64,000 nucleotides of DNA from Candidatus Gastranaerophilales bacterium. Lineage in GTDB: Bacteria > Cyanobacteriota > Vampirovibrionia > Gastranaerophilales > Gastranaerophilaceae. Numbering within the stretch: the stretch's first letter is position 1; every line of letters begins with the position of its first letter. The position numbers and the translations under genes were made by a program. The notes beneath the pieces are model-generated. The model was not told where the DNA came from and did no database searches. It saw only the letters and a program-made list of their open reading frames with translations. The stretch spans positions 3,841-67,840 of the forward strand of contig CANUDF010000001.1 of assembly GCA_947857085.1 (NCBI GenBank), in the 5' to 3' direction. Shown here piece after piece: positions 3,870-39,490 of this stretch.

Positions 3870-4163
3870 ATACTATCCCCTCTTAAGAGAAATTATAGCA
3901 CTGTTTTGAGCAAATGACAATATTTTATAGATTGTAAAGCAAGATAAAAGCAGTTATTAAAATAATGTTACGATTTTGTTACATAGTAAAAAATAAAAAG
4001 CAATTTTGTATAAGCAAATTTGTTTATTAATATGTAAGGGAAATTTCAAAAATTAATAATTGGATATTAAACAATGTCAAAATTCAGGTTCCTGAGATTA
4101 TAGGAACAGAAGAAAGAAAAGTTTTTTATACTCTCTCTCTTAATATCCTCGTGTTTATTTAAT

Positions 4164-4189
4164 GTTGCCTCAATAGGCAACTTTTTTTT
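4164..4189 (+). terminator. Hairpin plus T8 (rho-independent terminator-like), plus-strand orientation
   Basis: gttgcc-tcaata-ggcaac is followed by tttttttt. It lies just outside the trxB stop, and an A-run precedes it only weakly on the other strand. Confidence 0.45.
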
Positions 4190-4194
4190 GCGTT

Positions 4195-5133: not shown

Positions 5134-5142
5134 CTGTTACCC

Positions 5143-5664
5143 TCATTTTCCTAATATACTCGTACCTGCTATCTTTTCACCTTTTAAAGTATAAACAGCT
5201 TTTGCTGTCTTTATAACAGAATTATCAATATCGGAAAGAGTTTCAAGAACTAAAGTATTTGTTCCTGTAAACCTTTCTGTATCTATATTTAATTCAACCT
5301 TATCAGTCAATATTCTTCCGTCGTAATTGCCTTTTCTTATGAACCTGATTGCATCATCTCCTGCATAACTCAAAGTTATTGAAGCTGAAGCCCCTGAAAA
5401 TGGGTTGCTTAAATTTATGACGTCACCTTGTTTTGATAAGTTCCATATATCAACATTTTCTTTTTTAAAATCATTAGGACTATTTGTCTCAATAAGCGAA
5501 GACTCTACACGCCACGTTCCAAAGAATGTTTCCGGAACTTTTTCAATTAACGATACACCTGCTTTTAACACATTATCATTATAAACTTCGTTTCCTTTTA
5601 CATTAATAGAAGATATAATTACTAATAAAGATAATATAAAAAGTTTTAAAATTTTTTTAAGCAT
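5143..5664 (-). CDS. Hypothetical secreted protein
   Basis: It has an N-terminal signal-peptide-like segment (MLKKILKLFILSLLVIISSINVKG). It is packed tightly between pgi and trxB. Confidence 0.5.
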   Translation of the reverse strand: MLKKILKLFILSLLVIISSINVKGNEVYNDNVLKAGVSLIEKVPETFFGTWRVESSLIETNSPNDFKKENVDIWNLSKQGDVINLSNPFSGASASITLSYAGDDAIRFIRKGNYDGRILTDKVELNIDTERFTGTNTLVLETLSDIDNSVIKTAKAVYTLKGEKIAGTSILGK

Positions 5665-17476: not shown

Positions 17477-17603
17477 TATGAGCTCCAATAAATGTATGTG
17501 TAAATTTTGTCGGCAGAAAACTTTAAGACTTTATTATTTATCGAAAATATCCTCTGAATGTATTAGCCGGTTTATTAATTTGTATTTGTACTATAATGTA
17601 GTT

Positions 17604-20782: not shown

Positions 20783-21092
20783 AATATCTCCTAACTCCGA
20801 CTTAATGTATTATAAATAAATTTTCTCTGAAATGCAATAGTTCATTAAGCAAATTTGACCGGTCTGCTTAGTACTAAAATTTTTTCTTACGGTTAATTTA
20901 ACCAATCTAATATAAAAGTTGGTTACTTACGCCATTTTGCAAGAATATATTCAATCTGCGCGGCAAATTCTACCCATATTTTTAACTATTTTTTGCTATT
21001 CTTTTACAATAAATTAATACAAATAGCAAAAAAAACATTTATGAGTTTTATAAAATACATTTACAACAATAAACCTGAGACAGGCATTATTT

Positions 21093-22898: not shown

Positions 22899-22977
22899 GC
22901 AGAAAATAAAATTAATACAACAAACAAATATGATACTATAAATGTAGTATCCTACTTACTAAAAGCATATTATATCC

Positions 22978-25017: not shown

Positions 25018-25388
25018 AGACCTTCCCACTTTCACATTTACGTAAGTTTTATAGATTCATTTTCTGATATACCCCCAAAAAGATATCTTTTAGATATATG
25101 CCACTATATGCTAGTATTAATAAAACAAAACAAAACAAAAACAAAATATTTTTATTCTAATATGCTAACTTTTTTAATAATTTGTTACAATTGTATCACT
25201 TTTATTCGATTAAAACATAAAAAAGTGTCTGATAGTTGCTATTCAATCCAATCATAGTTTTTGAAGTTCATCAGAATGGATTTCATAAAATATTTCCCAC
25301 TAGGGGATTAAAAAAATTGCTTGCCCGAAATTCTCAAACTAAACGTTAAAATACAATTGTTTAGAGTCTTAACAACAAAATTCAGTCA

Positions 25389-25435
25389 TAAAAAAACTCC
25401 CCAGGTTGGACTCGAACAAACAACCTACTGGTTAA
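25389..25435 (-). repeat. Degenerate copy of the 3' half of tRNA-Asn (distal att-like repeat)
   Basis: This segment matches 39412..39457, which runs from the anticodon loop (TTAA) through the 3' end plus ~8 nt downstream. The copies differ by 2 substitutions and 1 A-run indel. Confidence 0.85.
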
Positions 25436-25568
25436 GCTACGCTGGGTAGATGTAGACGTTTATAATGAAGAAATAACTATCAGAAATTCTAAATTTATAT
25501 AAATACAGAATATGTTTAAAAATCCTAAAACGAATAAGCCTTATGTAGATATAAAAATAGCATAATCT

Positions 25569-25862
25569 CTAAATAAAAAAGTCCTGATATCCAGTTAAAA
25601 CTCTTAATATATAAAGAATATCATCCTTAACATAGTATATAATTTGGTAATGTTTAGCTACAATACACTCTCTAACATCTCGTCTAACGAAATTAGATTT
25701 TCTGAATCCACTTTTAGGAAATAAAGCTAAAGTATTAAACTTTTTTTCAAAAAGGTCTATCATTTCAATAGCCTTAGCGACATTATCTTGGGCAATAAAA
25801 TCAAAAATATTTTGCATGTCTACTTCAGCAGCAGTTGTAATTATAATATTTAAGTTAGGCAT
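25569..25862 (-). CDS. parE: Type II toxin, ParE/RelE family
   Basis: 97 aa. It overlaps the upstream antitoxin ORF by 8 nt, and its C-terminal YQIIYYVKDDILYILRVLTGYQDF is typical of ParE. Confidence 0.75.
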   Translation of the reverse strand: MPNLNIIITTAAEVDMQNIFDFIAQDNVAKAIEMIDLFEKKFNTLALFPKSGFRKSNFVRRDVRECIVAKHYQIIYYVKDDILYILRVLTGYQDFFI

Positions 25863-26103
25863 ATTTCTTTCTTAAATCCTTAAATACTTCCTCGCTAGAG
25901 CGACCTTTACCAGCTTGCATTTCTTCCCAACCTTTTTCAATTTCAGAATTGAGGTTTTCAATATTTTCTTTAGAAATGTTATTATCTATAAAAGCAACCT
26001 GAACAGCAAATGAAATTGCGTCTTCTAATGTATCAAAAATTCCCTCGGAAACTTTAGCTTTTAAAAGATTTTCTATATTATTTGGTAAAGAAGATATATC
26101 CAT
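25855..26103 (-). CDS. Type II antitoxin, ParD-like
   Basis: 82 aa. It lies immediately upstream of and overlapping the ParE-like ORF. It is small and acidic, with a helical SEGIFDTLEDAISFAV segment. Confidence 0.6.
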   Translation of the reverse strand: MDISSLPNNIENLLKAKVSEGIFDTLEDAISFAVQVAFIDNNISKENIENLNSEIEKGWEEMQAGKGRSSEEVFKDLRKKYA

Positions 26104-26171
26104 AATCTAACCTCATATTAATAAAAATTGTATAATTAGATTATAACAAATTAACGGTAAAATTTCAATAT

Positions 26172-26221
26172 AGCTGTAAAGTAACACTTAGTTTGAGAAA
26201 AAGTAACAGTAGGTTTGAGAA
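26172..26221 (+). repeat. Left-end site pair: two tandem ~22-bp sites (aaagtaacaNtNNgtttgagaa)
   Basis: aaagtaacacttagtttgagaa and aaaagtaacagtaggtttgagaa sit back to back. They are the inverted partners of 38790..38812 and 38918..38940. Confidence 0.7.
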
Positions 26222-26341
26222 TTTTATATGTTTAACTAAAATTTTTATGATGCTAATCAAATAATTTTATACGAAGTTTTCCGATGCAATAATTTCTTGT
26301 AAAAATTTTCTATTGTACTTGATTTAAAGCATTTTGATAGT

Positions 26342-27613
26342 ATGATTATATGCATGGTACCATGCTTAGATGATAGAATTAAAGAAAATAATAATTTTAC
26401 TATTTTAAATTATCAAGGTAGTAAGAAAAATTTGATTGATTTTATTCATAAGCATATAGATAATTTAATCATTCCAGAAAAAGCTTTTTTAGATATTTTT
26501 GCAGGAACTTGTGCTGTTGGCTATAGTTATAAGTCTTGTTGCCCAGTATATGCTAATGATTTAGAATATTATTCTTACTTAATAGCTGATTCTTTATTGA
26601 ATAATTATAATAACTATAATTTTAATAAGATAAAAAAAGAAATAGGCAATCAATTTAAAAACTTATACAATTTAAAATTAAAAAAATATGATAAGTGGAT
26701 TATTGCAGAAGAAACTTTTTTAGAATCCAATAAAATAGAAGATTTAATTGATTTATATAGCTCATATCCAACAATATGGAATAACGCCGAAATGATATTG
26801 GATAAAAAGCAATATATCCTTTTTACGTCATATTATGCTGGTAATTATTTTGGAATAAAACAAGCTATAGAAATTGATTGTTTAAGAAATTTAATTGAAA
26901 ACATTGATAGTAATTTATTCTCAATGTTAATATCATGTTTATTTTTTGCTATGAAAAATTGTGTATTTTCAAAGGATGGTCATATGGCTCAACCGTTAGA
27001 TTTGCATAAAAATGCTTCAAAACTAATATTTAAGCGCAAAAATTCTATTTTGGATAATTTTTATAGCAAATTAACGGAATACTTTTCTTCAGAGTTTATA
27101 AATACTAATTTTTCTAACTCCGCATATAATATGGATTTTGAAAATCTTATAAAGTTAAAAGAAATTCAAGATAATGTTGGACTTATATATGCTGATCCAC
27201 CATATACAGATATGCAATATTCTAGATACTATCATTTATTAAACATTGTTTCTAAATATGATTATCCAAAGCCAACATTAATAAAAAATGTATATACCAA
27301 AGGTTTATATACTGAAGGCAGAAGTCAATCTTTGCTTAGCCAAAAACGATATTGTCTAGAGCATTTTAGTAATCTTATTAACTTTTCAAAAAAATATAAC
27401 AAAAATCTTGCTATCAGCTTTGCATATCCCAATGATCCAATACTTCAAAAAACGGATAGATATGTTATGAGCATTGAAGAAATAGTAAGAGAATGTACCA
27501 AAGTCTTTAAAGAAAAAAATGTAAATGTTGTATCAACAAAATACAATCATTCAAACAATAGAAATACACAAACAAAAAAGGTATTAGAGTATTTAATACT
27601 ATGTAAATATTAA
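26342..27613 (+). CDS. Dam-like (D12 class) N6-adenine DNA methyltransferase
   Basis: It has NYQGSKKN (the Y-x-G-x-K block), FAGTCAV (motif I) and IYADPPY (motif IV), in the order I...IV. At 423 aa it is larger than canonical Dam. Confidence 0.7.
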   Translation: MIICMVPCLDDRIKENNNFTILNYQGSKKNLIDFIHKHIDNLIIPEKAFLDIFAGTCAVGYSYKSCCPVYANDLEYYSYLIADSLLNNYNNYNFNKIKKEIGNQFKNLYNLKLKKYDKWIIAEETFLESNKIEDLIDLYSSYPTIWNNAEMILDKKQYILFTSYYAGNYFGIKQAIEIDCLRNLIENIDSNLFSMLISCLFFAMKNCVFSKDGHMAQPLDLHKNASKLIFKRKNSILDNFYSKLTEYFSSEFINTNFSNSAYNMDFENLIKLKEIQDNVGLIYADPPYTDMQYSRYYHLLNIVSKYDYPKPTLIKNVYTKGLYTEGRSQSLLSQKRYCLEHFSNLINFSKKYNKNLAISFAYPNDPILQKTDRYVMSIEEIVRECTKVFKEKNVNVVSTKYNHSNNRNTQTKKVLEYLILCKY

Positions 27614-27614
27614 T

Positions 27615-29198
27615 ATGGAAATTTGCTTAGAAAAAATAAAAGATAAAATAAATAAAGCGACAGCTACCAATAGAAATGATCTATATGATTCACATATCTA
27701 TTGGTCACAAAAACCTTATAATATTTGTGATATTCTAATAAATTCATTTAGCAAAAAAGGTGATATTGTTTTTGATCCATTTCTAGGTTCTGGAGTAACA
27801 TTATTACAATCTATAAAAAAAGAGAATGATCGTATTGGTATTGGTTGTGAAATTAATGATGCACCTATTTTTATTGTTAATACCCTATTGGCAAAATATG
27901 ATACTAAAAAATTCAAAAAAATATCAGAAGAATTTATTCAACAATTAAAAAAACTATTACCATATTATTACACGAAATGTCCTTATTGTGGGAAAAATGC
28001 AGTAATAACATCTGTAATTTTTGATAAACCGTCAAGAAATGCTGATATTAATATTAAAACAATTAATTTTAGATGTTCTTGTACTAGTAAATCTACAAAA
28101 TTAGCTGATGATAATGATTACAAATCAATAAATATAAATGAAGAAATTAAAAATATTAAAAGCGAGTTTCTAATTCCGAACTCAAAAATAGCCGTATATG
28201 AAAATCAACATATTGATCAGATTTTTACAAAACGAAATTATCTAATTTTAGATAAAATTATAGGAATAATAAACCATCTTGAAAACTATAGTGATTTGTT
28301 TAAATATTTATTAATGTCTATTATTCATTTAGCAAAAATCACTGATACACATTCATCTTCACAGTGGCCGCTTTGGATTCCGAAGAATAACTGCGTTGAA
28401 AAAAACATTATTGATTTAATAGAAAAAAAAGTTATTAAATTTGAGAAAACAATAAAATATTTAAATAATAATTACTCTAACACTAACTCTTATAAATTAT
28501 TGCACAAGGGCAGTCAGTTTATAGATGATACAGATATTTCAGATGAATCCATTCAACTTATTATTACTGATCCTCCATACTTAGGACAAGTTGCATATTC
28601 AGAATATATGCAATTATATAAACCTTTTTTAAATTTAAATTTTAATTTAGACGATGAAATAATTGTGTCATCTGCACCTTCAAGAAATAAAAACGAAGAC
28701 CAATATTTCAAAGACCTAGATAATGTATTTTCAATATGTTCAAAAAAAATGAAAAATGAAGGTTATTTGTGTTTGTATTTTCATGATAGCAGTCTAGAAG
28801 TATGGGATAAATTAATTAATATATTGTCAAAAAATCACTTTAAATATTTATCACAAGCACATATACGAAAATCAAACACTTTAAAGAATATAATAAGCCC
28901 CAAAAAGTCTCTGAATGGAGATTGTATATTATTTTTCCAAAAGGATAATAACATTGCTTCGAATCCTATTGGTTCAGAAGATATATTAGAAATCGAACAA
29001 AATATTATAAAACAAGCGAAATTTTTAGTAAAACGAGCGAATTGCCTTTCTACTCCAGAATTGTATGATTTGGGTCTTATGGAAATTTTAATTCACAATG
29101 GATGGTTAAATCCATTATCAAAAAAATACAAATCTTTAGTTGATATATTTGAAAAGCATTTAATTTGGGATTCAATTAAATCAAAATGGACTCTTTAA
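27615..29198 (+). CDS. Alpha-class amino (N6A/N4C) DNA methyltransferase with Cys-rich insert
   Basis: It has VFDPFLGSGVT (motif I) near the N-terminus, a CPYCG...CSC insert, and IITDPPY (motif IV) about 260 aa later. It starts 1 nt after the upstream MTase stop. Confidence 0.7.
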   Translation: MEICLEKIKDKINKATATNRNDLYDSHIYWSQKPYNICDILINSFSKKGDIVFDPFLGSGVTLLQSIKKENDRIGIGCEINDAPIFIVNTLLAKYDTKKFKKISEEFIQQLKKLLPYYYTKCPYCGKNAVITSVIFDKPSRNADINIKTINFRCSCTSKSTKLADDNDYKSININEEIKNIKSEFLIPNSKIAVYENQHIDQIFTKRNYLILDKIIGIINHLENYSDLFKYLLMSIIHLAKITDTHSSSQWPLWIPKNNCVEKNIIDLIEKKVIKFEKTIKYLNNNYSNTNSYKLLHKGSQFIDDTDISDESIQLIITDPPYLGQVAYSEYMQLYKPFLNLNFNLDDEIIVSSAPSRNKNEDQYFKDLDNVFSICSKKMKNEGYLCLYFHDSSLEVWDKLINILSKNHFKYLSQAHIRKSNTLKNIISPKKSLNGDCILFFQKDNNIASNPIGSEDILEIEQNIIKQAKFLVKRANCLSTPELYDLGLMEILIHNGWLNPLSKKYKSLVDIFEKHLIWDSIKSKWTL

Positions 29199-29200
29199 CA

Positions 29201-31591
29201 CTAGCTTTCTAATATTCCATTATAATATTTGTTTGGAAATGCATCATTTAGTTGTTGGACAATTTCTTGACCATTTATTATTTTAATATCATTTGCGCAG
29301 GCTATTGTTTTTCCATCTTGCGTGTAATCTGATGTTGTAATACATACTGCGATATCGAAACCTCTTCGAATTTTTTCAGAATGTAAACGTTGAATTGGTT
29401 CGCTTCCAACATTGGCAACCCAACGTTTACATTGGAATAAGTATTTAGTTGTATTGCCATTTGTTATTTTTTTTGCGAGCAAATCAACACCTAGGTCTCC
29501 AGAACCTCCAGTATTAATTACATCAATATAGCCTTGCGCTTCGAGTAATGATTTTATAATTATTTCAAAATCCGTCCCCGATAAACATGATACATCTATT
29601 GCATCATCAGAAATTGCGTTTGTATATGTTTTTTTGATATAAACATTTTCATTGCAATCGCAATAATTTTTAATTATTTTTTTTATTTCATTTTGACAAT
29701 TATTATCATCTAAAAAACTATTAATAGAATTAGGATTACCATCACATAGTTTGTTTGCTATTTCAAAATAAAGATCATCTAATACAAATTGTCCGTTTTT
29801 TTCTAGTAATTCTTTTATAAATAACGGCATCAAATCATATAATTTTGTAAATAAATCATTATTGTCTTCAATATCAAGATATAACTTGTTACAGTTTATT
29901 CTCACTATTGCATTTGTGTCTATATGAAAATTTTGTTGTATTACAGAAGTAATCTTCTCAATATCACTTTCGGTTGCAATATAAGATTGTTTCTCTTTCA
30001 AAATGTCTAAAATATATTGCACGCAGGTAGTTAAAGTAATATCAGAATTTGCAGTTTGTAGTATTTTATTATATATTAATTTGACAACTTCAAATTCATA
30101 GTTTTTATTACCTACATACCAATAAGCTTCGGTTTTAGGCAATTTCTCGAAAAATACAATCATTTCTTTTGATAAGGTATTTTTGTATGCAGATTGTTTT
30201 CTGATTGTCGGATCATTTTTATCAATTCCAATTCTGGCAATATACTCAAACCCATTTTTTCTTGCAAGATTTATAATTTGAGTCAAAGTTTCAAAATATT
30301 TTCTTGCACCAAGTTTAATTGTAAAGATAGCAAGTTTGTTATCTTTTAAAACCTTGATAAAGTTTTTAAACATGGTATCTATATCATTAAAATAATTATC
30401 AAGAGATTGTTTGTTTGGTCTTGAAGGTGCATTTGTTAACACTAATTCATTATTAAGCATATCCTCAGTTAATTCAAATTCACCAGGTTTATAAAATTTA
30501 TTCAACCATTTTCTATATAACTGATTCCATTCTAAATATGGCACTTGATCTGTATAAGGGAAGTCAGTATATATCATATCAAATTTTTGTTCTAGGCAAT
30601 TATTTATATAGGCTTGATAAGGAACGTTATATAGTTCGTATAAATTGTTATTTTCCGGATTTGTTGATAATATTTCGCAAAATTCTTCCTGAAATTTAAT
30701 AAGTGCTTCAACTTTGTTTTTAAATATTTCCCAAACATTCGTTTCTTGTGCTCCTTTCATAACAACATGGTATAAACGGTCAGTTGATGAACCATACATT
30801 GCAATTCTAGATAATGCAAGAGATGATACTAACATGAATTCTAAAAAATCTTTTTCCGGACTATTTGTTAAGTTTTTAATACCATTTTGAAGAATCAATA
30901 GTGCTTTTTGATTTCTTTTAGTAAAAAGCCTATTATAATAATCGGCACCAGTTGCTGCAGTTATATTTATTCTGCTATTTTCAATATATTTATCATTAGG
31001 AAAATCTTCAATATGTTCATTATTTATTTCATTTAATTTTTCTAAATCATAGCTAGAAAAATGTTTATATAAATTATGACATTTAGAACACCTTTCAACT
31101 AATTTCACATTTTTCCCATCTTGTATATCTCTATTATCCGTTGGATTAAAATATTCTTCTGTTTGTGGATCATAAAATAATTTTGAAATATAGTTTTTTT
31201 CTCCACAACATTCTGTTTCATATAGATTCATAATTAACGGCTTGGTATCAGTTTCTAATTGATTTAGATAATTTTGTAATATTTCCAAGTTTATTTTCTT
31301 AAATATTGTTTTTACAATAGAAAAAGTATAATTATCAATTTCATTCCCAATGATTTTTTTATTAGCCATTGATGCCGCGATAATAAAAGAACCAGACCCC
31401 ATAAATGGATCATAAAGTACATCATTTGGACCAGCTAGCGTTTCTATGATGTTGTGTGCAATGTCAATTGACTTTCTACCGGGAAAGTTAAACACAGTCT
31501 TAAAAGAATGAGGGACTTTATTTTCAACACCTTCCAAATTAGCAATTAAAGTTCTAATTTTTTGATAAGTTTCTTCATTGATTCTTTTCAT
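29201..31591 (-). CDS. Fusion protein: alpha-class DNA methyltransferase-like module plus C-terminal Mrr-type (PD-(D/E)xK) restriction endonuclease domain
   Basis: The N-terminal module (LYDPFMGSGSF, CC..CSKC insert, IYTDFPY, NAPSRPNK) is colinear with 27615..29198. The C-terminal FEIIIKSLLEAQGY..GGSGDLGVDLL..FQCKRW..VG..CITTSDYT matches the Mrr catalytic domain pattern. Confidence 0.7.
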   Translation of the reverse strand: MKRINEETYQKIRTLIANLEGVENKVPHSFKTVFNFPGRKSIDIAHNIIETLAGPNDVLYDPFMGSGSFIIAASMANKKIIGNEIDNYTFSIVKTIFKKINLEILQNYLNQLETDTKPLIMNLYETECCGEKNYISKLFYDPQTEEYFNPTDNRDIQDGKNVKLVERCSKCHNLYKHFSSYDLEKLNEINNEHIEDFPNDKYIENSRINITAATGADYYNRLFTKRNQKALLILQNGIKNLTNSPEKDFLEFMLVSSLALSRIAMYGSSTDRLYHVVMKGAQETNVWEIFKNKVEALIKFQEEFCEILSTNPENNNLYELYNVPYQAYINNCLEQKFDMIYTDFPYTDQVPYLEWNQLYRKWLNKFYKPGEFELTEDMLNNELVLTNAPSRPNKQSLDNYFNDIDTMFKNFIKVLKDNKLAIFTIKLGARKYFETLTQIINLARKNGFEYIARIGIDKNDPTIRKQSAYKNTLSKEMIVFFEKLPKTEAYWYVGNKNYEFEVVKLIYNKILQTANSDITLTTCVQYILDILKEKQSYIATESDIEKITSVIQQNFHIDTNAIVRINCNKLYLDIEDNNDLFTKLYDLMPLFIKELLEKNGQFVLDDLYFEIANKLCDGNPNSINSFLDDNNCQNEIKKIIKNYCDCNENVYIKKTYTNAISDDAIDVSCLSGTDFEIIIKSLLEAQGYIDVINTGGSGDLGVDLLAKKITNGNTTKYLFQCKRWVANVGSEPIQRLHSEKIRRGFDIAVCITTSDYTQDGKTIACANDIKIINGQEIVQQLNDAFPNKYYNGILES

Positions 31592-31765
31592 ACTTAAACT
31601 ACCTCAACTCTTTAAAACTATTCTTCATTTATCTCATAAAAATATGTTTATATCAATTTAGAATATAAATTTTTGTACTTAAAAATTAAAAAATAATTAA
31701 TTTTGAGCCGATTTGCTAAAATTTAATATATGATTTTCATGAGAAATTGAACTATAGAGTTAAAT

Positions 31766-33442
31766 ATGGTGGAAGAGGAAAAAGTTAAAACTATTAATCT
31801 CAATATAATGTTATTAAAAAATTGTTGTAATTTAAACAATCGAGAAGATTATATTGATAAATATTCAGAAAAAAATATTATAAAAGGTGGCAAGAGCAAT
31901 GATTCTTACTTTTTATATAAAAATGGTCGAGGAAAAAGCAAACCTTCTTGGGTTTTAGAATTTGATGAAAAAGTATTAGATGGGATCAAAGATTCTTTTG
32001 AAGATACTTCTTCTGAAGGACTTTCTGTTATTAAACAGATTAATTACAAAAATATAAATTATTTATTTTCAATAAATTTTGGTCAAGGATGGAGAAATAT
32101 AAAAAAAGACAAAATAGAAGATACTTTTGGTATATATACAACAATTGCAATAATAGAAGAAGGTGCTAAAATACGTAGAGCAGGAACACGAAATATATCA
32201 AGCAATCCTAAAAATACAGAATTTCAACATGCTTTTGAAATTACAAATGAGACATTTAACTCAGAATTAGAAGATAATGATATTATAAGACATTTGAATG
32301 CAACAGCTGATACTTCTACTATTAGCTCGGTCATTGGTAAATATGGTCCTTTAAATATAAGAATGAGGTTTAAGGAATCAGAAATCCCTTGTTGGGACTA
32401 TCTTGATGACAGATTATTGTCATTATTAGAACAGTATTTAAAAATACAAACAAATGAAAGAATTATAAATAAATATTTTAAAGGATTACGCCCATTACCT
32501 AGTGCTAAGCAAAAAGAATTAAATGATAACCTTGACTCTAAAATACTCGAAGATACTTCTAAATTTTTCTTATTTGAACCAGAAATAGACTATGATCCTA
32601 CTATTATTTCAAGTATCAAATACAAATTAAAAGAGGATTCTAGAGCCTCTGAAACATACGAAAATTTAAAATTGGAAGATTATCTAGTTTTAAGAGAATC
32701 CAAAATGCCTTTAAATTTAAATGAAGATAAAGTCTTTTTAATAAATGAAGATGGGAAAAAGTGTAAAGAATGGACCATTTTAAAGTGTCTATATGGCGAA
32801 ATTAAACAAGACAATCAAGTCTATATATTATCAAATTCTGTCTGGTATGGTATGTCTAATGATAAATACGAACGAATTAATAAAAATATTAAAGCGATAC
32901 AAGAAGATTTTTATATAGATGATTGTACCAAGGAATCTACACAAAAAAGTATTATGAAGCAAAAATTAAAAGGTGTAAAACAAATAGCCAAAGAACGAAT
33001 TTTTAATACGGCATTATGTAAACAACTTTCAGGTGAATTATTTGATGAAATTAGTCAACAAATTACTATTGATGGTGACAAGATGGAAGTTTGTGATATT
33101 TTTAATCCAAAAGAAAAAGAATTTATTCATTCAAAAATAAGTTCTGATGCTGCGAAACTTAGCCATCTTTTTAATCAGGGATATGTTTCTGCAAGAGCAT
33201 TCGCATCGATGAAAGAACAATATGTATCATTAGTAAATGAAAAAATGAAAAATGAAGAACATAAATTAGATGATTCACAAAATTCGCATCAAAAATATAC
33301 CATAAGGTATCTAATAATAAATGGTAATACTAAAAATAGATTAACTTTTATAAGCAAGTTAGCTCTTGATAAAATTATTACCGATTTAAAAGGTTTTGGT
33401 TATAATGTTAAATTGTCTTGGGTAAATCAAATCAGTTTATAA
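31766..33442 (+). CDS. Uncharacterised protein, probably DUF6119 / TIGR04141 'sporadically distributed' family
   Basis: At 558 aa, its N-terminal INLNIMLLK..., FSINFGQGW and C-terminal MEVCDIF..FIHSKISSDAAKLSHLFNQGYVSA fit my recollection of that family (E.CD..iH.K...S..LSHLf.QG.vSa). This is not verified by search. Confidence 0.45.
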   Translation: MVEEEKVKTINLNIMLLKNCCNLNNREDYIDKYSEKNIIKGGKSNDSYFLYKNGRGKSKPSWVLEFDEKVLDGIKDSFEDTSSEGLSVIKQINYKNINYLFSINFGQGWRNIKKDKIEDTFGIYTTIAIIEEGAKIRRAGTRNISSNPKNTEFQHAFEITNETFNSELEDNDIIRHLNATADTSTISSVIGKYGPLNIRMRFKESEIPCWDYLDDRLLSLLEQYLKIQTNERIINKYFKGLRPLPSAKQKELNDNLDSKILEDTSKFFLFEPEIDYDPTIISSIKYKLKEDSRASETYENLKLEDYLVLRESKMPLNLNEDKVFLINEDGKKCKEWTILKCLYGEIKQDNQVYILSNSVWYGMSNDKYERINKNIKAIQEDFYIDDCTKESTQKSIMKQKLKGVKQIAKERIFNTALCKQLSGELFDEISQQITIDGDKMEVCDIFNPKEKEFIHSKISSDAAKLSHLFNQGYVSARAFASMKEQYVSLVNEKMKNEEHKLDDSQNSHQKYTIRYLIINGNTKNRLTFISKLALDKIITDLKGFGYNVKLSWVNQISL

Positions 33443-33462
33443 TTAAAAATCAAAAGCAAAAC

Positions 33463-33506
33463 ATTGTTCAAAAAGTGTTCAACAGTGTTCAAAAGGTGTT
33501 TAAAAA
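33463..33506 (+). repeat. Four tandem 10-11-bp repeats (GTGTTCAAMA-like), helically phased
   Basis: The repeats read attgttcaaaaa / gtgttcaaca / gtgttcaaaag / gtgtttaaaaa. They lie in the 147-bp gap between two convergent genes. Confidence 0.7.
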
Positions 33507-33589
33507 TCAAAATAGGTATCAGAGTGCCTTTTTGAAATTTTCATGCAAAATAACGCAAAATAAAAGGAGCTGTTAAACTCCCAAATAGA

Positions 33590-34423
33590 CTACTCATGAA
33601 AAAAATTTTCGGTATCAAATCGTGAAAAGTTTAGGTTTCTGAATTTTTCTATTTTATTATCTGAATATTCTTTCTTCACCCAACGAAGATATGTTTTAGC
33701 AGAAGATACTTTTGCTCGATTAATTTTTATTTTAATCAATCTCTCAAATCTTTGAATTGCAAGTTCTCGGGCTTCACTTAAAGAATACTGTTTTGGCGAA
33801 AGATAATATTCTTTAAAAAAATAATATATTTCACCGGGTTCTCTTGTTTCTGATCCTACAAGATTTATCAAGCCATTTCTTGAAATTTCATATTTAAATT
33901 TATTATATTTATTTAATGTAATATTGGCTGTTTTTAACGTCTTTTTAAGTTCTCTCTCATTCATTCCTTGAGTTTGTTTTAATAACTTGAACATATCTTT
34001 TATATTTTGTTTAGTTTCAGGAGGAGCAAAGAAATAATCAATAAAGCCATCTAACTCATTAATATATTTGGGAAAAACTTCTTTAGGCTTTTTAACTTGA
34101 AATGGCAACATATGACGCATGCAGTCGCTGTCACTTTCTATTGTTTTTTCTTTGGATTTACTTATTTGAGGAATATAAATATATGAATCCCCATTATCTC
34201 TTATAATATTTTTTGACGTTAGTTTTTCTAAAATCGGAATAATTTCTATTTTTGATTTTTCAAGTAGGATTTCTAAATCTTCTACTGTAAAAATATTTAA
34301 TTTCTTAATCGCTATTTCAATATTTTTTTCTAATAAATTTTTCCTATGTCTTGTTTCCACCTTAAAACTCCAGTTCTTGCTTTGTAATTTTCTTATATCC
34401 GTTAGTTTGTGCCAATTCTTCAA
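33590..34423 (-). CDS. Hypothetical HTH/winged-helix-like protein, third gene of the transposition operon
   Basis: The ORF-track ATG 34423 overlaps the ATPase gene by 62 nt. An in-frame GTG at 34360 lies 1 nt after the ATPase stop, with GGAG 7 nt upstream, so it is the likely coupled start. Confidence 0.5.
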   Translation of the reverse strand: MKNWHKLTDIRKLQSKNWSFKVETRHRKNLLEKNIEIAIKKLNIFTVEDLEILLEKSKIEIIPILEKLTSKNIIRDNGDSYIYIPQISKSKEKTIESDSDCMRHMLPFQVKKPKEVFPKYINELDGFIDYFFAPPETKQNIKDMFKLLKQTQGMNERELKKTLKTANITLNKYNKFKYEISRNGLINLVGSETREPGEIYYFFKEYYLSPKQYSLSEARELAIQRFERLIKIKINRAKVSSAKTYLRWVKKEYSDNKIEKFRNLNFSRFDTENFFHE

Positions 34424-35036
34424 TCTTTAAAATATAAATTACAATTTGCCTTAGTCGATTAGCATTTTTTGCAATCATTTCAATTACTTCATCATCAAGC
34501 GGAACTTCGCATAATTTTGTAACAATTTCTTTTATATCTTCAAAATCAAAAGGGACAAATTTATAAATACCCAAAAGCCTGTCATATAAATGCTTAAATC
34601 TTTTTAATTTTTTATCAGCAGCTCCCATTCCAACTAATAAAACAGGAATTCCTGTTTTATCGTGCAAATCACGAACTGTTTCAATAGCTCTTGTAGATTC
34701 TACCAAGTAATCAACTTCATCCACGATTAACATTCTTGGTTTTTCTATTAACTTCGCAACAGCTTGATCAAATAATTCAAAAGATGTTTTCTTTGGCTCT
34801 TCGCCTAATTCCTTAACAAGAGCTTTTAAAAACCAAATTCTTGACATTCCATTTGTTGCTGTAACCAGTATGGCATTTTGGTTTAAAGTCCACCAAAGAA
34901 CAGCATTGCTTTTACCCAATCCTGGTTCACCATATACAAGTCCAATTTTAGGAACATTATATTTTGCATTATTTAATCTTTCTATTAATGAAACAAATGC
35001 TCTAACATTTTTTGTTTTTACAAATGTTCTTCTCAT
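34362..35036 (-). CDS. MuB/TniB-like AAA+ ATPase (transposition target-capture protein)
   Basis: It has Walker A GEPGLGKSN and Walker B LIVDEVDYL. It is 224 aa and lies 12 nt downstream of the transposase gene. Confidence 0.65.
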   Translation of the reverse strand: MRRTFVKTKNVRAFVSLIERLNNAKYNVPKIGLVYGEPGLGKSNAVLWWTLNQNAILVTATNGMSRIWFLKALVKELGEEPKKTSFELFDQAVAKLIEKPRMLIVDEVDYLVESTRAIETVRDLHDKTGIPVLLVGMGAADKKLKRFKHLYDRLLGIYKFVPFDFEDIKEIVTKLCEVPLDDEVIEMIAKNANRLRQIVIYILKIEELAQTNGYKKITKQELEF

Positions 35037-35048
35037 AATTATCTCCCT

Positions 35049-36986
35049 TTAATCCTCAACGCCATACAACAATTTATATTCGGTTGATTTTTTATAATTA
35101 TCCACCCATTTTTGCTCATCTTCAGATAAATCGGGTTTGTTTTTTAGATAATCATATCTTTCGTATTTATTATGAAATACAATTTTTTCAGGTTGAATTT
35201 CATCTTCTTTTAAGCTTTCAATGAGCAACTTTTTATCTTCTATGCTTGGCTTATAAATCACATTATCGGTTTCATTTAGTGCCGGTAAATATACCTTTTC
35301 TTTTTTCAGTTCTCTAAGATATTGTTTTACAGTTTGCTTTTCAAGTTCTTTTTGTTGTTTAATTCGTTGTTTTAATTCTTCCACATCTTTTGCTTCGCCT
35401 GTATAATTAGCAAGTGGATGAATTGGGGCAAGTCTTTCGGCTGTACATAAAAATTCGCCCGACATTGTAAAAACTTTGATATAAGACAAATCAAAAAGAC
35501 TATATTTTATAACAACTTGAGTCCTTAATCCGTATAAACTTTCGTGATAATAATCGGATTTTAAAAATCTTATTCCGTTTCTGCCAATATTTTTAATAAC
35601 ATTTACCATCATTAAATCATCTAGTGTTGAAATATCAATGCCATTACCTTTTCCCGCATCAAATACTTCCCCAATACTTAAACCCTTTACATTAGGACAA
35701 GGTTGTGCATAATGAAAGTTAACCATCCAACGAGTAATATAATTTATAACTTCATCCATTGTAGGAATGTAATTGCTGTGAATTTCTTTGTGTAAGCGTT
35801 CATTGCGTTTTTTATAAGCTGGTTTATTATCAATACAAGAACCCACAAAAGAAGGCAATATACGTTCAAAACTATCCTGCATTTCCCTAAAAAATCTTTC
35901 TATCGGTTTAGCTTTGGCATTATATGGTTTTGCGAAAATCGGAGTTATTCCAAGTTTTATAAATAAACCGCTAATATCATCATCTGCTGTAAAATAATCA
36001 GCCTTATATGCTTTTCCGTTATCTTGATAAACAAATTTTGGATATTTACCCAATGCAATAATTGAATTTCTGAGTGCTGAAGCAATACATTGGGTATTTT
36101 CTTCCAACATAACTTCAAAACCAACCATTGCTCCAGATTTCCAATCTTGATAAGCAGCAATTGTCGGTCTGCATGGTTTGCCTGTAAATGGATTTATAAC
36201 CTCAAATGCAAGCCTATGCCCATCACCAATTAAAACATCTCCTACATTTAATTTTAAAATATCTCTTTCGATATATGGTATAACTTTATCTCTTAAGGCT
36301 TTTGCACCTTCTCTTGCAAATATCCACATATCATAGTGTTCCTGTTTATACTTGGAGATAAACCTCCGATATGTCATCTCGCATGCTAAATTAGTTACAC
36401 CCTGCTGTAATAAAAGATGCTTTGTTAATTTGATAGCTTTTCCAATATTTGGTTGGTTAGGGTTCAGTAATATTTTTAAAACTGTTTCCTTTTCTTTTTC
36501 TGAAAATTTATCTTTATTCGGTTGTGATTTATATTTTGGAGCTAGGACTTTCCAATTATCAGCATTTTCTTTTAGAAGTCTATCCCAACGCATTATTGTT
36601 GATATTGCTATATTGTTAATATTTTCATACTGATTATTTTTATTTGGCATGTTATTATAAACAGATACAAATTCTTTAATAGCATCAACCTTTTTACCTT
36701 TATAATTAACGCAAAAAGCACGCCATTTCATTACAATATCAAATTTAGTTAATGCTCGTTTTTTACTCTTTTCACTAATGGGAGTGTTAAAATTCTCTGT
36801 GGAAATTTCGGTCGAATATAGTTTATTAACTTCATCTTGCCACTCTTGTTCAATAGATGAAACTAAAACTTCATATCTCTGGCAAATTTTTCGCCCTATA
36901 TATTTTCCGCTTGTTACTAATTTGCGAACAGATCTATCAGATACGCCTTTAATTTTTGCAAGCTCGGTTGCTCTAATCCACTCCAT
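35049..36986 (-). CDS. Mu A-like DDE (rve/Mu-transposase) transposase
   Basis: It has an N-terminal HTH (IRATELAKIKGVSDRSVRKL). The DDE core is LIGDGHRLAF..RPTIAAYQDWKSG, VYQDNGKAY and KPIERFFREMQ. The GDG(H/Y)...RP...(W)QD spacing is like phage Mu A. Confidence 0.75.
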   Translation of the reverse strand: MEWIRATELAKIKGVSDRSVRKLVTSGKYIGRKICQRYEVLVSSIEQEWQDEVNKLYSTEISTENFNTPISEKSKKRALTKFDIVMKWRAFCVNYKGKKVDAIKEFVSVYNNMPNKNNQYENINNIAISTIMRWDRLLKENADNWKVLAPKYKSQPNKDKFSEKEKETVLKILLNPNQPNIGKAIKLTKHLLLQQGVTNLACEMTYRRFISKYKQEHYDMWIFAREGAKALRDKVIPYIERDILKLNVGDVLIGDGHRLAFEVINPFTGKPCRPTIAAYQDWKSGAMVGFEVMLEENTQCIASALRNSIIALGKYPKFVYQDNGKAYKADYFTADDDISGLFIKLGITPIFAKPYNAKAKPIERFFREMQDSFERILPSFVGSCIDNKPAYKKRNERLHKEIHSNYIPTMDEVINYITRWMVNFHYAQPCPNVKGLSIGEVFDAGKGNGIDISTLDDLMMVNVIKNIGRNGIRFLKSDYYHESLYGLRTQVVIKYSLFDLSYIKVFTMSGEFLCTAERLAPIHPLANYTGEAKDVEELKQRIKQQKELEKQTVKQYLRELKKEKVYLPALNETDNVIYKPSIEDKKLLIESLKEDEIQPEKIVFHNKYERYDYLKNKPDLSEDEQKWVDNYKKSTEYKLLYGVED

Positions 36987-37135
36987 TAAATCCTCCTGTA
37001 TTTTAATAATTTGTATTGAAGTACAATTTTTGTAGATTAATCAAGATAGGTTTTATATTATACTAAATAGACTAATGGTATAGTGGAATAATATACCATG
37101 TAATTCTAAAGTTTTGTTATAAATTACTCGGGCTG
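36987..37135. promoter_or_regulatory. Divergent control region between the transposase and the Mor-like gene, with an operator-like palindrome
   Basis: There is a perfect 8-bp inverted repeat, atggtata(9 nt)tataccat, at 37076..37100, and a second small palindrome, ttgta-ttgaag-tacaa, near 37011..37026. Confidence 0.35.
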
Positions 37136-37471
37136 ATGGTTATTATAATATTTCTCATGTATAATTGGTTTATGTACGACAAAGAACCTAAATGGGCAAA
37201 ATATATTACAGAAGATTCTATTGATGACTATGGTTTATTAGACTTAGTCAACATAATTGGACTTGAAGCAACAAAAAAGTTGATGATTCATTATGCAGGA
37301 AATAGCATTAGAATTCCAAAATCAGCCAATACAAAATATAAACATCAATATGTTTTAGATAATTATGATGGAACAAAAATCTCTAGAATGAGAACTGCTA
37401 TTGAATGTCAAATTACTGAAAATTATATTTTTAAAATTATGAAAATGTATAAAGATAAAAAGCCAATGTAA
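37136..37471 (+). CDS. Mor-like transcription activator family protein (tentative)
   Basis: At 111 aa, its AGNSIRIPK...YDGTKISRMRTAIECQITENYIFKIM fits the Mor pattern (G...iyIPK...f.G.n...la..y.ls.r.iyrI). It is divergent from the Mu A-like gene. Confidence 0.4.
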   Translation: MVIIIFLMYNWFMYDKEPKWAKYITEDSIDDYGLLDLVNIIGLEATKKLMIHYAGNSIRIPKSANTKYKHQYVLDNYDGTKISRMRTAIECQITENYIFKIMKMYKDKKPM

Positions 37472-37474
37472 AAA

Positions 37475-38677
37475 TTATACATTATAACCTAAGTATCTCA
37501 GTCCTGAATTTGTATTTTCGTTTCTAATTGGCAATTCATCCCTAAGAAGTCCAATAACTTCTTGTGCTGTGGATTCCCCAAAATATCTTATAGAAGAATT
37601 TTTTATTAATTTATCAAGTTCTTTTGGAGAAGCTATTTTTAATTTCTGAATACACGATTTTACATCTTTTACATTGTTTTCTTTTGCAAATTTCTCCTTC
37701 CAGTTAAATCTTACAGAATTGGTCAAATAAGTATTTATGTTATTTGCGAGAAATTCGGATATATCTTCTAAATTTGCACTATCTATGTTCTGATCCGAGA
37801 ATATTTCTAGTGCATTTTTTCTATAATTCAATCTGATGCCTTCATTATCCCATACAGAATCAGAAATTATCCAATTATGATATTCTTGAATACAATTTTT
37901 TAAAAGTTTTGCTTTTTGTTCACTATTTAAATTGTTTACTTCAAATGAATAGTAGTAATCTTTTGAAGAATTATTCTCTGAATGATGGAATAAGTAATTC
38001 AAGAAACTATCTATTTCAAATTTTAGCGGTGAATTTTTCCAAATTCTACCATAGGATTCATATTGTTTTGACAACTCATTATATTCATTCAGGAACTGTT
38101 CATAACTACATTTTTCAGTAAGCTCTTTTGGCAATTTAATAATTGGTTTTAAATCAGGATTAAAACCTTCTGTATCAATATAAGTTGAATTATTCAATGC
38201 TTCATCCAACATTTCTTGATTAACTGGTGTTCCAAGTTCCCAAATTTCATTGTACATTGCTTCAAATCTATCAACATCTAATATATCACCGGCAACACCT
38301 GTTTCATAGTTTACATATAATCCTCTATAGGTCATATTAGCAGAGGTTACAACCGAATAATCATCCATTAAATACATTTTTGCGTGTAAATGTTTTAAGC
38401 TTCTTAATTCACAATTATTACCTAAGAAAAATTTTAAAATTTTATAATTATTGATTGAAATATTATTCAAATCAGTAAGAAGTCTGAAATTTGGCTTGTG
38501 TTTCTTAATTTTGCTTATTTGAAAAATATAATAAAAAATCTTTTCACTACTTATAAATGGTGAAGATATCCATAGACGATTACATATTCTGCCTGAATGT
38601 TCGTGTAGATAATTGGTAATACAATCCATTTTTGTAGTATACCTAAAATCAATTAAATTATTAATTAAATCTGCCAT
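37475..38677 (-). CDS. Single-HKD phospholipase D-superfamily nuclease (Nuc/BfiI-like) with unknown C-terminal domain
   Basis: It has one canonical HxK(x)4D(x)6..SxN motif, LHAKMYLMDDYSVVTSANMT, in the N-terminal ~150 aa. The C-terminal ~230 aa end in an HhH-like segment, FGESTAQEVIGLL. Confidence 0.6.
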   Translation of the reverse strand: MADLINNLIDFRYTTKMDCITNYLHEHSGRICNRLWISSPFISSEKIFYYIFQISKIKKHKPNFRLLTDLNNISINNYKILKFFLGNNCELRSLKHLHAKMYLMDDYSVVTSANMTYRGLYVNYETGVAGDILDVDRFEAMYNEIWELGTPVNQEMLDEALNNSTYIDTEGFNPDLKPIIKLPKELTEKCSYEQFLNEYNELSKQYESYGRIWKNSPLKFEIDSFLNYLFHHSENNSSKDYYYSFEVNNLNSEQKAKLLKNCIQEYHNWIISDSVWDNEGIRLNYRKNALEIFSDQNIDSANLEDISEFLANNINTYLTNSVRFNWKEKFAKENNVKDVKSCIQKLKIASPKELDKLIKNSSIRYFGESTAQEVIGLLRDELPIRNENTNSGLRYLGYNV

Positions 38678-38789
38678 ACTTGCTCCTAAATACTATTATA
38701 TCTAACTATATTATTATAAATAAGCATACAAAACTAGTTCCGATAAATTGGTTCCGCAAATTTAAAAACTTTACTGATTTTTTATAAAT

Positions 38790-38940
38790 TTCTCAAACTC
38801 AATGTTACTTTTAAAAATCAGCTTTAAATATTTATATACATTAAATTTTAGGTGTTTATACATAAAACAAATTTATTGGGTTTGAGCCATAAAAGTTCCG
38901 CAAAATTACATTTTTTAAATTCTCAAACATATGTAATTTG
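38790..38940 (+). repeat. Right-end sites (ttctcaaac...gt(t/a)a(c/t)), inverted relative to 26172..26221
   Basis: The sites are ttctcaaactcaatgttactttt at 38790..38812 and aattctcaaacatatgtaatttg at 38918..38940. The first matches the reverse complement of 26199..26221 at 20 of 23 positions. Confidence 0.65.
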
Positions 38941-39078
38941 CCTTTCCGACCAATCCTGTTTATATTTCCGACCAATCCGTTTGTACTCATTTTATGTGTT
39001 ACTTTACACCTTATGATAATTTTTCCGAAACTTGGTGTTAATTTTTTAATTCCTTGCACAACTGGACTATACCAAAAT

Positions 39079-39262
39079 AATCAAACTATCCGTACACCTT
39101 AAAAACGGTGCTAAAACCAGCTATATTAAGAAAAAATCAAACTATCCGTACAGTCCCCAAAAAGTCCATTTCGGCAGTTTGATTTTTTTGGTAAACTTAA
39201 TTTTCCGACCCAAAAACGCCCTCGCAGAGCGGGCTGTCCAAAATAATCAAAGTATCCGTACA
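39079..39262 (+). repeat. Three direct copies of an 18-bp motif, aatcaaa(c/g)tatccgtaca
   Basis: The copies lie at 39079..39096, 39135..39152 and 39245..39262 (start spacings 56 and 110 bp). The reverse complement begins TGTAC. Confidence 0.8.
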
Positions 39263-39418
39263 AATAAAACCGGTCGTTAAATTACAATAGCCAAAATAAA
39301 TTAAATAATAAGTGCAGACAATAATAATTTTATTCAAGGGTAAATAATTATTTTTTTGGTCAATATATGGTCAATTTTTTTTAGTCGATTTTCGAGGGGG
39401 CTGAAACCCAATAAAAAA

Positions 39419-39490
39419 CTCCCCAGGTTGGACTCGAACCAACAACCTACCGGTTAACAGCCGGTTGCTCCGCCATTGAGCTACTGAGGA
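39419..39490 (-). tRNA. tRNA-Asn (anticodon GTT)
   Basis: The reverse complement TCCTCAGTAGCTCAATGG...CCGGCTGTTAACCGG...GGTTCGAGTCCAACCTGGGGAG folds into a cloverleaf with a CTGTTAA anticodon loop. CCA is not encoded. Confidence 0.9.

Follow-up and report, generated by a model that had tools for sequence, protein, structure and literature searches.

A tRNA-Asn gene and its displaced 3′ copy enclose 14 kb without a site-specific recombinase

We analyzed a 64,000-nt stretch of DNA from a Candidatus Gastranaerophilales bacterium (GenBank assembly GCA_947857085.1, contig CANUDF010000001.1, positions 3,841 to 67,840 of the forward strand; hereafter the window), in which the 3′ part of a tRNA-Asn gene recurs about 14 kb from the intact gene and a Mu/Tn5053/Tn7-type DDE transposon lies between the two copies. 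The segment that the tRNA-derived repeats bound when the transposon is left out measures 860 bp and is referred to below as the mini-island. The features of the locus, in window coordinates, are as follows.

25331–25355, minus strand: solitary transposon-end-like site, TGTATTTTAACGTTTAGTTTGAGAA, about 41 nt past the tRNA 3′ end of the displaced fragment
25391–25435, minus strand: repeat copy 2 (attR-like), the displaced tRNA-Asn 3′ fragment, 43/45 identical to copy 1
25436–26174, minus strand: larger part of the mini-island, with the antitoxin gene, the ParE toxin gene and a 133-nt arm beside the tRNA fragment
25569–25862, minus strand: ParE toxin (Pfam ParE_toxin, 1.9e-13)
25855–26103, minus strand: antitoxin
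26170–26174: target-site duplication ATAGC, left copy
26175–39286, minus strand: Mu/Tn5053/Tn7-type transposon of 13,112 bp, GC content 0.27, with termini TGTAAAGTAACAC... and ...TTAAATTACA; missing, to the exact base, from the allele of three other samples
39287–39291: target-site duplication ATAGC, right copy
39292–39412: arm of the mini-island beside the intact tRNA gene, 121 nt, with the direct repeat ATTGACCA twice; contiguous with 26174 in contigs L121, L124 and L126
39413–39457, minus strand: repeat copy 1 (attL-like), from the tRNA anticodon loop to the 3′ end plus 6 nt
39419–39490, minus strand: intact tRNA-Asn(GTT) (ARAGORN; Rfam tRNA, 66.6 bits)

This tRNA-Asn gene is the only one in the 1.75-Mb, 88-contig genome, and it stands intact at one end of a pair of direct repeats derived from its own 3′ part. 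The repeat is 45 nt long and ungapped, with 43 of the 45 positions identical between 25391–25435 and 39413–39457; the two substitutions of the displaced copy fall in the T-arm and the anticodon stem, and the match lengthens by a few bases once a single indel in an A-run is permitted. A search of the whole genome returned these two copies only, the partial one with E = 1.7e-14. Identity runs from the anticodon loop (...GGTTAA|) to the tRNA 3′ end plus 6–8 nt, stopping inside the loop at a canonical crossover sublocation, and the sequences downstream of the two copies bear no relation to each other. Williams is said to have set out in 2002 that an identity block of this extent, from the anticodon loop to beyond the 3′ end of the tRNA, is classical for tyrosine integrases of the anticodon-loop type. 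An initial annotation, made from the sequence by itself, had described a tRNA-Asn 3′ part duplicated about 14 kb away in the same orientation and had likened it to the attachment (att) site geometry of tyrosine integrases; the duplication is confirmed and unique in the genome, and the anticodon-loop boundary together with the run past the tRNA 3′ end bears the likeness out.

The same annotation had reported that no tyrosine or serine recombinase is encoded in the interval, which agrees with our searches for intact and broken genes alike. Scans of the open reading frames (ORFs) with Pfam, NCBIfam and PADLOC found no such recombinase between the repeat copies, and a six-frame hidden Markov model (HMM) search in which stop codons were read through gave zero matches to PF00589 or PF00239 on the whole of contig C1. 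The proposal that an integrase pseudogene be sought in the 0.74-kb non-coding block beside the tRNA gene (38680–39418) was followed with this six-frame search, and no integrase remnant appeared there or across C1. With no integrase gene inside it, the repeat-bounded unit fits only the category of a remnant or a cis-mobilizable element (CIME), that is, an element without integration genes that has retained attL and attR (PMC5704250). Elsewhere in the genome, tyrosine recombinases are encoded on contigs C77, C35 and C29, besides a Xer-like pair. An integrase pseudogene lies at 4993–5313 of another of its contigs, C27.

Other samples carry the locus without the transposon

Alleles of the locus were surveyed through contigs that code for exactly the window's ParE protein, which yielded six contigs from other samples. 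Three of these (L121, L124 and L126, from samples ERR4191866, ERR4191862 and ERR4191869), which are 99.99–100% identical to the window's left flank, carry the locus without a segment of 13,112 bp, such that 26174 is joined straight to 39292 (...TTTTGGCTAT|ATTGAAA). The joint is identical in the three samples, and when the window's flanks are joined with one ATAGC kept, there are 0 mismatches to L121 over 1,025 nt. Because the joint shares only 5 bp, an artifact of k-mer assembly is not plausible. The occupied allele is present in two more samples (L122 and L123; ERR10422978 and ERR10422994). The locus thus displays the 5-bp target-site duplication and the matching empty site expected of a Mu/Tn7-type transposon, and this recent, clean insertion polymorphism suggests that the window copy is active and would lend itself to experiment.

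Both 45-nt repeats are present in the transposon-free allele, 860 bp apart, and the repeat is therefore older than the transposon and not its product. The initial annotation had treated the 14 kb as one island; this view does not hold, since the repeats bound an 860-bp mini-island that other samples possess without the transposon. The comparison with relatives that it had recommended gave a divided answer, in that an unoccupied site was found for the transposon and none for the mini-island, and the 14 kb do not appear as ancestral sequence in any relative. A third allele is represented by positions 1–387 of another contig (L131, SRR20950896), which join the window at 25786; there, a different insertion with repeated ...CCGGACATTT... 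motifs truncates ParE. The tRNA-Asn flank is consequently a multi-allelic hot spot within one species. A search for related loci in genome contigs returned only one near-identical fragment, 2.7 kb long, from a metagenome-assembled genome of an uncultured Clostridia. Genomes of the same genus were considered as a source of an empty tRNA-Asn site and set aside, as the interval between mnmG and tRNA-Asn differs in each species and contains nothing comparable.

We read the locus, with a probability of roughly 0.78, as a decayed, att-flanked remnant within which a tRNA-homing transposon of the Mu/Tn7 superfamily was later nested. In the older of the two events, an integrative element would have entered tRNA-Asn by site-specific recombination with a crossover in the anticodon loop, regenerating the tRNA gene and leaving the 45-nt direct repeat, and would subsequently have decayed to an 860-bp remnant composed of a ParE–antitoxin pair and two arms of about 125 nt, with no integrase. 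In the recent event, a TnsA-less DDE transposon of 13.1 kb inserted into this remnant by ordinary transposition, duplicating ATAGC and widening the spacing of the old repeats from 0.86 to 14 kb.

The transposon-free allele bears directly on two other accounts. One holds that the locus kept its integrase up to the arrival of the transposon, and that the insertion, or a deletion it caused alongside, then destroyed or removed the gene. Integrase genes normally occupy the place where this family lands, and in a relative, G237, a transposon terminus truncates a tyrosine recombinase of which ...VGTRLAKENVPVNVIKEILAHSDIKTTMRYVH* is left; yet the transposon-free allele already lacks an integrase and differs from the window by a clean insertion and 5 bp, with no deletion, so that we regard this account as hardly credible for the window. 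Integrase loss through transposon insertion is plausible at other loci, G237 being an example; at the window locus, the integrase had already been lost before the transposon came. A related candidate, in which the inner repeat TGTAAAGTAACAC at 39007 served as the right end and the lack of a 5-bp duplication there pointed to an adjacent deletion that had removed the integrase, was also rejected: the unoccupied allele shows that the right terminus falls at 39286, that the duplication is perfect and that nothing was deleted. The inner repeat had been mistaken for the end because homology to the closest relative (G082) breaks there.

The other account is the strong form of an explanation offered in the initial annotation, namely that the Mu-like machinery made the 45-nt duplication and that the 14 kb are one tRNA-integrating element. 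The family does sit beside tRNA genes, an 18-nt repeat of a tRNA-Asp 3′ end brackets the copy in G159 as well, and tyrosine-recombinase-like domains occur in sister clades. The presence of the repeat in the transposon-free allele refutes this account all the same, the transposon has its own 5-bp duplication, ATAGC, inside the repeats, just as the copies in G159, G200 and G165 have 5-bp duplications of their own, and the sister-clade domain is both without the catalytic Arg, His and Arg and missing from the window's subfamily. We assign it practically no probability and retain the succession of remnant and transposon.

The mini-island resembles a decayed, integrase-less remnant

The mini-island consists of a ParE–antitoxin pair with a unique arm on either side, one of 121 nt and the other of 133 nt. 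Its toxin–antitoxin cassette, promoter included, has 73–74% DNA identity to moron cassettes of Mu-like prophages, and the 121-nt arm has no homology to the prophage toxin–antitoxin cassettes. The closest cassettes (72–74% identity; L140, ERZ16268064 scaffold_1606, positions 4142–4673 and 16433–19244) are morons that lie between the baseplate V and W genes of Mu-like transposable prophages with a MuA bearing HTH_Tnp_Mu_2/DDE_2, an AAA_22 ATPase and GemA. ParE homologues were also followed as a route to an integrase-bearing relative, and the tail gene clusters that hold the closest cassettes looked P2-like; a walk along the contig showed a Mu-like transposable prophage with no link to an integrase.

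All seven contigs retrieved from six other samples contain the mini-island or a derivative of it, and among them there was no empty tRNA-Asn site, no circular joint and neither presence/absence polymorphism nor excision at the repeats. The mini-island looks fixed in the sampled strains of the species. Our reading is that of a CIME-like remnant, decayed and without an integrase, which pre-dates the transposon; of the explanations put forward in the initial annotation, loss of the integrase with fixation of the island best describes this repeat-bounded unit. The geometry of the 45-nt repeat points to a putative integrase origin.

A second of those explanations would make the mini-island, alone or with the transposon, cis-mobilizable, so that an integrase encoded elsewhere or brought in could move it. 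Both att-like repeats have been kept at 43/45 identity, the genome encodes other tyrosine recombinases, on C77, C35 and C29, besides its Xer-like pair, and CIMEs mobilized in cis by related elements are on record (PMC5704250). We nonetheless consider such mobility rather unlikely given the occupancy of all seven contigs without an empty site or circular joint, the two substitutions in the tRNA part of the fragment copy, and the failure to identify an integrase with the specificity of the repeat.

The repeat might, alternatively, be no att footprint at all, and instead a tRNA-linked local duplication that arose by unequal recombination or slippage, such as some tRNA genes have downstream of them. 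In Escherichia coli, for example, each of the tyrT–rtT repeats ends in a piece of the tRNA 3′ end. Three relatives of the same genus have a GC-rich insert of about 190 nt directly after tRNA-Asn (approximate positions 2230–2440 of L027 in G013, 16745–16960 of L024 in G002 and 10250–10510 of L028 in G017), which ends in a 25-nt copy of the tRNA 3′ end; the direct repeat flanking these inserts starts from the T-loop (GTCCAACCTGGGGAGTTTTTTATTG), a footprint unlike the anticodon-loop repeat of the window. No Rfam family matches the inserts at threshold, and there is a weak, sub-threshold RtT-like match (E = 0.04). At the window locus, by comparison, the interval holds a foreign toxin–antitoxin cassette with its own promoter, which is 73–74% identical to prophage morons and is no copy of local sequence; a repeat that stops within the anticodon loop is what integrases typically leave, and what follows one repeat copy downstream is unrelated to what follows the other. 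Local duplication appears quite improbable on these grounds, and an att-derived remnant remains our reading of the mini-island.

Beyond the displaced tRNA fragment, the motif of the solitary site at 25331–25355 also borders the transposon of another locus, L076. This suggests that the site is the scar of an older family member that stood beside the original tRNA 3′ end and pre-dates the integrative element. Window positions 20800–25390 form a low-GC stretch (0.285) that is missing from the compared genomes of the same genus and present in every allele of the species; it codes for a phosphatase–DUF6829 protein (21093–22898) and a 685-aa protein without a family match (22978–25035).

The transposon is a TnsA-less, TniQ-less member of the Mu/Tn7 superfamily

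The features of the transposon itself are listed below.

26175–26225, plus strand: left end, with the terminal TGT and two tandem 22-bp sites (AAGTAACAnTnnGTTTGAGAA)
26342–33442: defense-type cargo, comprising a D12 methyltransferase, an N6_N4 methyltransferase, a methyltransferase–Mrr fusion and a TIGR04141/DUF6119 protein
33590–34423, minus strand: third core protein, 277 aa, with a winged helix and a helical, DNA-binding-like domain; candidate target selector
34362–35036, minus strand: MuB/TnsC/TniB-like AAA+ ATPase, 224 aa (Pfam AAA_22, 2e-17; TniB, 2.3e-7; PDB matches)
35049–36986, minus strand: MuA-like DDE transposase, 645 aa (Pfam Mu-transpos_C, 1e-11; PDB 4FCY MuA, 3.8e-7)
37136–37471, plus strand: Mor-like regulator, 111 aa, divergent from the transposase gene tnsB (Pfam Mor, 2.6e-4, below cutoff)
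37475–38677, minus strand: PLD-family (DrmC-like) nuclease (Pfam PLDc_2; PADLOC DrmC)
38680–39286, minus strand: right-end region, with the outer X block, the terminal repeat copied internally, and additional sites and motifs of the TTCCG type

At the level of Pfam and PDB domains, the core pair consists of a MuA/TnsB-type transposase and an AAA+ regulator of the MuB/TnsC type. The transposase is closer in sequence to MuA (PDB 4FCY) than to TnsB, and the nearest PDB relatives of the ATPase are ShCAST TnsC, MuB and VchTnsC, with 7M99 and 8XVB among the PDB matches for the core pair. The Mor-like gene keeps its position in all relatives. The PLD nuclease is found in the G159 copy and is absent from the copies in G082, G200, G253 and G217, which marks it as cargo rather than core and argues against a TnsA-like role. 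No ORF contains a TnsA-like domain in the domain scans, nor is there a Pfam TniQ match that would indicate a TniQ/TnsD-family selector, so the element is not Tn7-like in the strict sense; with no phage head, tail or lysis gene among its ORFs, it is not a Mu-like prophage either. Of 300 genomes sampled from the order, 200 have homologues of the transposase, frequently several each.

The termini read TGT...ACA, the right one being TGTAATTTAACG when read as the reverse complement, and inverted repeats and arrays of internal sites accompany the TG...CA termini at both ends. The left end is 84–92% identical to the left ends of the copies in G082, G253 and G184. The right end is more elaborate: the terminal inverted repeat TGTAAAGTAACAC recurs internally at 38995–39007 and is followed by the outer X block (39008–39286), which contains the terminus TGTAATTTAACG, three direct copies of TGTACGGATAGTTTGATT, an GGTCGGAA motif and an inverted site. 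We take the X block to be the genuine right end because of the duplication and empty site of the window, because duplications flank the unit from X terminus to left end in two relatives (GCGTA in G159, ATAGA in G200), and because in a second element of the same genome, on C27, an X-type block leads directly into the start codon of tnsB. Two other candidates for the block, a landing pad in the chromosome and a gene for a small RNA, were dropped: it forms the outer right end of the element, and Rfam finds nothing there.

The 0.74-kb non-coding repeat block noted in the initial annotation thus exists as described, and its interpretation as a vacated integrase slot gives way to that of a transposon end. 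The block is made up of the right-end region (38680–39286), one copy of the 5-bp duplication (39287–39291) and the 121-nt arm (39292–39412), so that its final 130 nt or so are target duplication and island arm and the remainder is transposon.

Right ends are themselves sites of insertion in this family. At 181–19659 of L078 (G165:C2), a complete 19.5-kb sister-clade copy, with an inner TGTAAAG right end, is nested in the X block of another element with a clean TCCGG duplication; at L075, a resident element beside tRNA-Ile has a sister-clade copy nested in its right end. G217 has a tandem array in which the newer copy lies on the tRNA side. That family members repeatedly enter one another's right ends is the reverse of target immunity in its classical form.

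The transposon family is associated with tRNA and tmRNA 3′ flanks

The terminus of the window transposon lies 132 nt downstream of the tRNA-Asn 3′ end, with the right end facing the tRNA. For a census of such positions, 60 homologous loci were fetched and scanned for tRNA genes; the closest set, defined by at least 46% TnsB identity and counting the window and C27, comprised 34 evaluable loci. At 23 of these 34, a tRNA or tmRNA gene lies no more than 4 kb upstream of tnsB, against a chance expectation of 4–6% per locus (P < 1e-19), and in every one of the 23 it is on the tnsB strand with its 3′ end towards the element. The genes used are those for tRNA-Asn, -Asp, -Ser, -Met, -Arg, -Ile, -Leu, -Gln, -His, -Ala and -Val, plus tmRNA. 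Independent insertions therefore recur at tRNA genes in one orientation, with a variable offset and with copies often nested in resident ends. A more distant group, at about 45% TnsB identity, shows no enrichment (2/20 tRNA-linked). In the window's own genome, the second Mu-like element, at 22528–25213 of C27 (TnsB 39–43% identical), has its right end about 35 nt after the tRNA-Met terminator, and the contig stops at the tRNA.

The association of the family with tRNA genes accounts for the position of the window transposon, and to that extent the suggestion that a Mu-like machinery targets this tRNA has proved apt. As a mechanism, the family would home, in fixed orientation, to the first few hundred base pairs downstream of tRNA and tmRNA genes. 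For the Tn7 family, homing to positions shortly after tRNA genes, by way of TnsD or guide RNAs, is well documented (PMC10293859, PMC11837452).

Two further loci agree with the notion that the family settles at the sites of integrase-borne elements. In G159, the 18-nt repeat of the tRNA-Asp 3′ end is found on both sides of the transposon. At L079 (G237:C1, about 3680–3840), an X-type terminus truncates a tyrosine recombinase so that the last 54 or so codons are left, cut before ...VGTRLAKENVPVNVIKEILAHSDIKTTMRYVH*, and another family end adjoins about 50 nt past the stop codon of the truncated gene.

The third core protein is a candidate target selector

The 277-aa protein immediately follows tnsC, the ATPase gene, and is conserved in this place in all copies of the subfamily. 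It has about 35 public homologues at 44–98% identity, none of them named, and no Pfam or NCBIfam match. An AlphaFold model (predicted local distance difference test score, pLDDT, 77) consists of a winged helix, a linker and a helical domain. We infer that the protein is a target selector acting with the MuB/TnsC-like ATPase.

In a sister clade, the protein corresponds to the N-terminal 230 or so residues of a protein of about 550 aa (blastp 1e-9 to 1e-11), encoded at L074:7681–9330, L076:7695–9362, L078:7630–9276 and L077:10573–12348, which adds a SAM-like domain and a Phage_integrase domain. Box I of the latter, TGxRxxE, reads TGASVPE and box II, HxLRHT, reads SDLQHN, so that the catalytic Arg, His and Arg are replaced; judged by these motifs, the recombinase domain is predicted to be catalytically dead. 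The window's subfamily is without it. Some family members contain, in addition, tyrosine recombinases of about 180 aa (L023:12048–12587 in G019; L074:9958–10512) that consist of the catalytic domain only, with motifs that look intact; these may be cointegrate resolvases or invertases.

Weighing the two-event history

Several observations weigh against the history of remnant and homing transposon proposed above. The integrase responsible for the 45-nt repeat was not identified, an allele without the mini-island was not found among the retrieved contigs, and the closest ParE cassettes are in Mu-like prophages rather than integrase elements, with no integrase link. On the side of homing, the outer terminus lies anywhere from about 40 to 230 nt beyond the tRNA 3′ end, whereas targeting by TnsD of the Tn7 type keeps a constant distance; many copies, moreover, sit within right ends that belong to resident family members, and part of the tRNA association could reflect targeting of these resident ends. 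The closest relative (G082, 81% TnsB identity) is not beside a tRNA gene, and the G019 copy next to tRNA-Asn is inverted. Fold matches of the 277-aa protein are weak, comprising the MuA DNA-binding region (E of about 0.02), generic winged-helix proteins and a chain of the TnsABCD transpososome.

With these points in mind, we propose tentatively, and at somewhat less than even odds, that the window transposon is an active member of a large TnsA-less, TniQ-less Mu-type family that homes, in one orientation, to the flank 3′ of practically any tRNA or tmRNA gene, or to right ends belonging to members already parked there, by means of a new third protein built from a winged helix and a MuA-like DNA-binding domain, which in the sister clade is fused to a dead recombinase. 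A search of the literature, which was not exhaustive, found no description of a tRNA-homing family without TnsA and TniQ. If the third protein is the selector, it would constitute another independent solution to safe-site targeting, in a compact three-protein system that carries 8–17 kb of defense cargo. Elements of the proposed family would compete with integrase-borne islands for sites and overwrite them; at the window locus one landed within an att-flanked remnant, and in G237 one truncates an integrase gene. In practical terms, a tRNA-flanked island that lacks an integrase need be no riddle: population data here separate a decayed, att-flanked remnant cleanly from a later transposon insertion, and island callers that use tRNA repeats would mis-size the unit sixteen-fold.

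Comparison with known systems

The closest parallels to the transposon's behavior are the tRNA-homing Tn7-like elements, which use TnsD/TniQ or a guide RNA and include CRISPR-associated transposons (CASTs) of types I-B2, I-D and V-K (PMC10293859, PMC11837452). Shared with these are a MuA/TnsB-related transposase, an AAA+ TnsC/MuB-like regulator and a third protein, along with the 5-bp duplication, asymmetric multi-site ends, oriented insertion shortly after a tRNA gene, defense-rich cargo and tandem arrays. The window element differs in having neither TnsA nor TniQ/TnsD, in its winged-helix/helical third protein and in a transposase nearer to MuA; its family, moreover, inserts at a varying offset (about 40–230 nt) and uses many tRNA genes and tmRNA, and its right end is very long (about 600 bp) and includes an internal copy of the terminal repeat.

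The Tn5053/Tn402 and Tn552 group, the "res-site hunters" with their TniA–TniB–TniQ–TniR set, likewise combines a TnsA-less A+B core with a third targeting protein and oriented, targeted insertion, and the window ATPase has Pfam similarity to TniB. Unlike members of that group, the window element has no serine resolvase and no TniQ, and its target is a tRNA 3′ flank or a resident right end instead of a plasmid res site; some sister copies bear small tyrosine recombinases in place of the resolvase.

In Tn6022-like elements, the selector TnsF has a tyrosine-recombinase domain that is inactivated (PMC10293859). By domain make-up, the sister clade's 550-aa protein may be likened to it, as both have an apparently dead recombinase domain in the selector position; the 277-aa protein of the window has no such domain, and the targets are tRNA flanks and not comM. 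With bacteriophage Mu and Mu-like prophages, the element shares a Mu-transpos_C transposase, a MuB-like ATPase, a Mor-like regulator, TG...CA ends and a 5-bp duplication, and it differs from them in lacking phage structural, lysis and replication genes, in its non-random insertion and in its defense cargo.

The mini-island, for its part, is like a CIME in its tRNA 3′ direct repeats, regenerated tRNA gene, small size and absence of an integrase, with a toxin–antitoxin pair as the only surviving cargo. It is unlike one in that a cognate, integrase-bearing partner was not identified here and no empty site was seen, and in that a DDE transposon unrelated to it later landed in the remnant. The att duplication that lacks a recombinase resolves into known kinds, a CIME-like remnant and a later insertion of the Mu/Tn7 superfamily; the island is ordinary, and the transposon family is the more interesting part.

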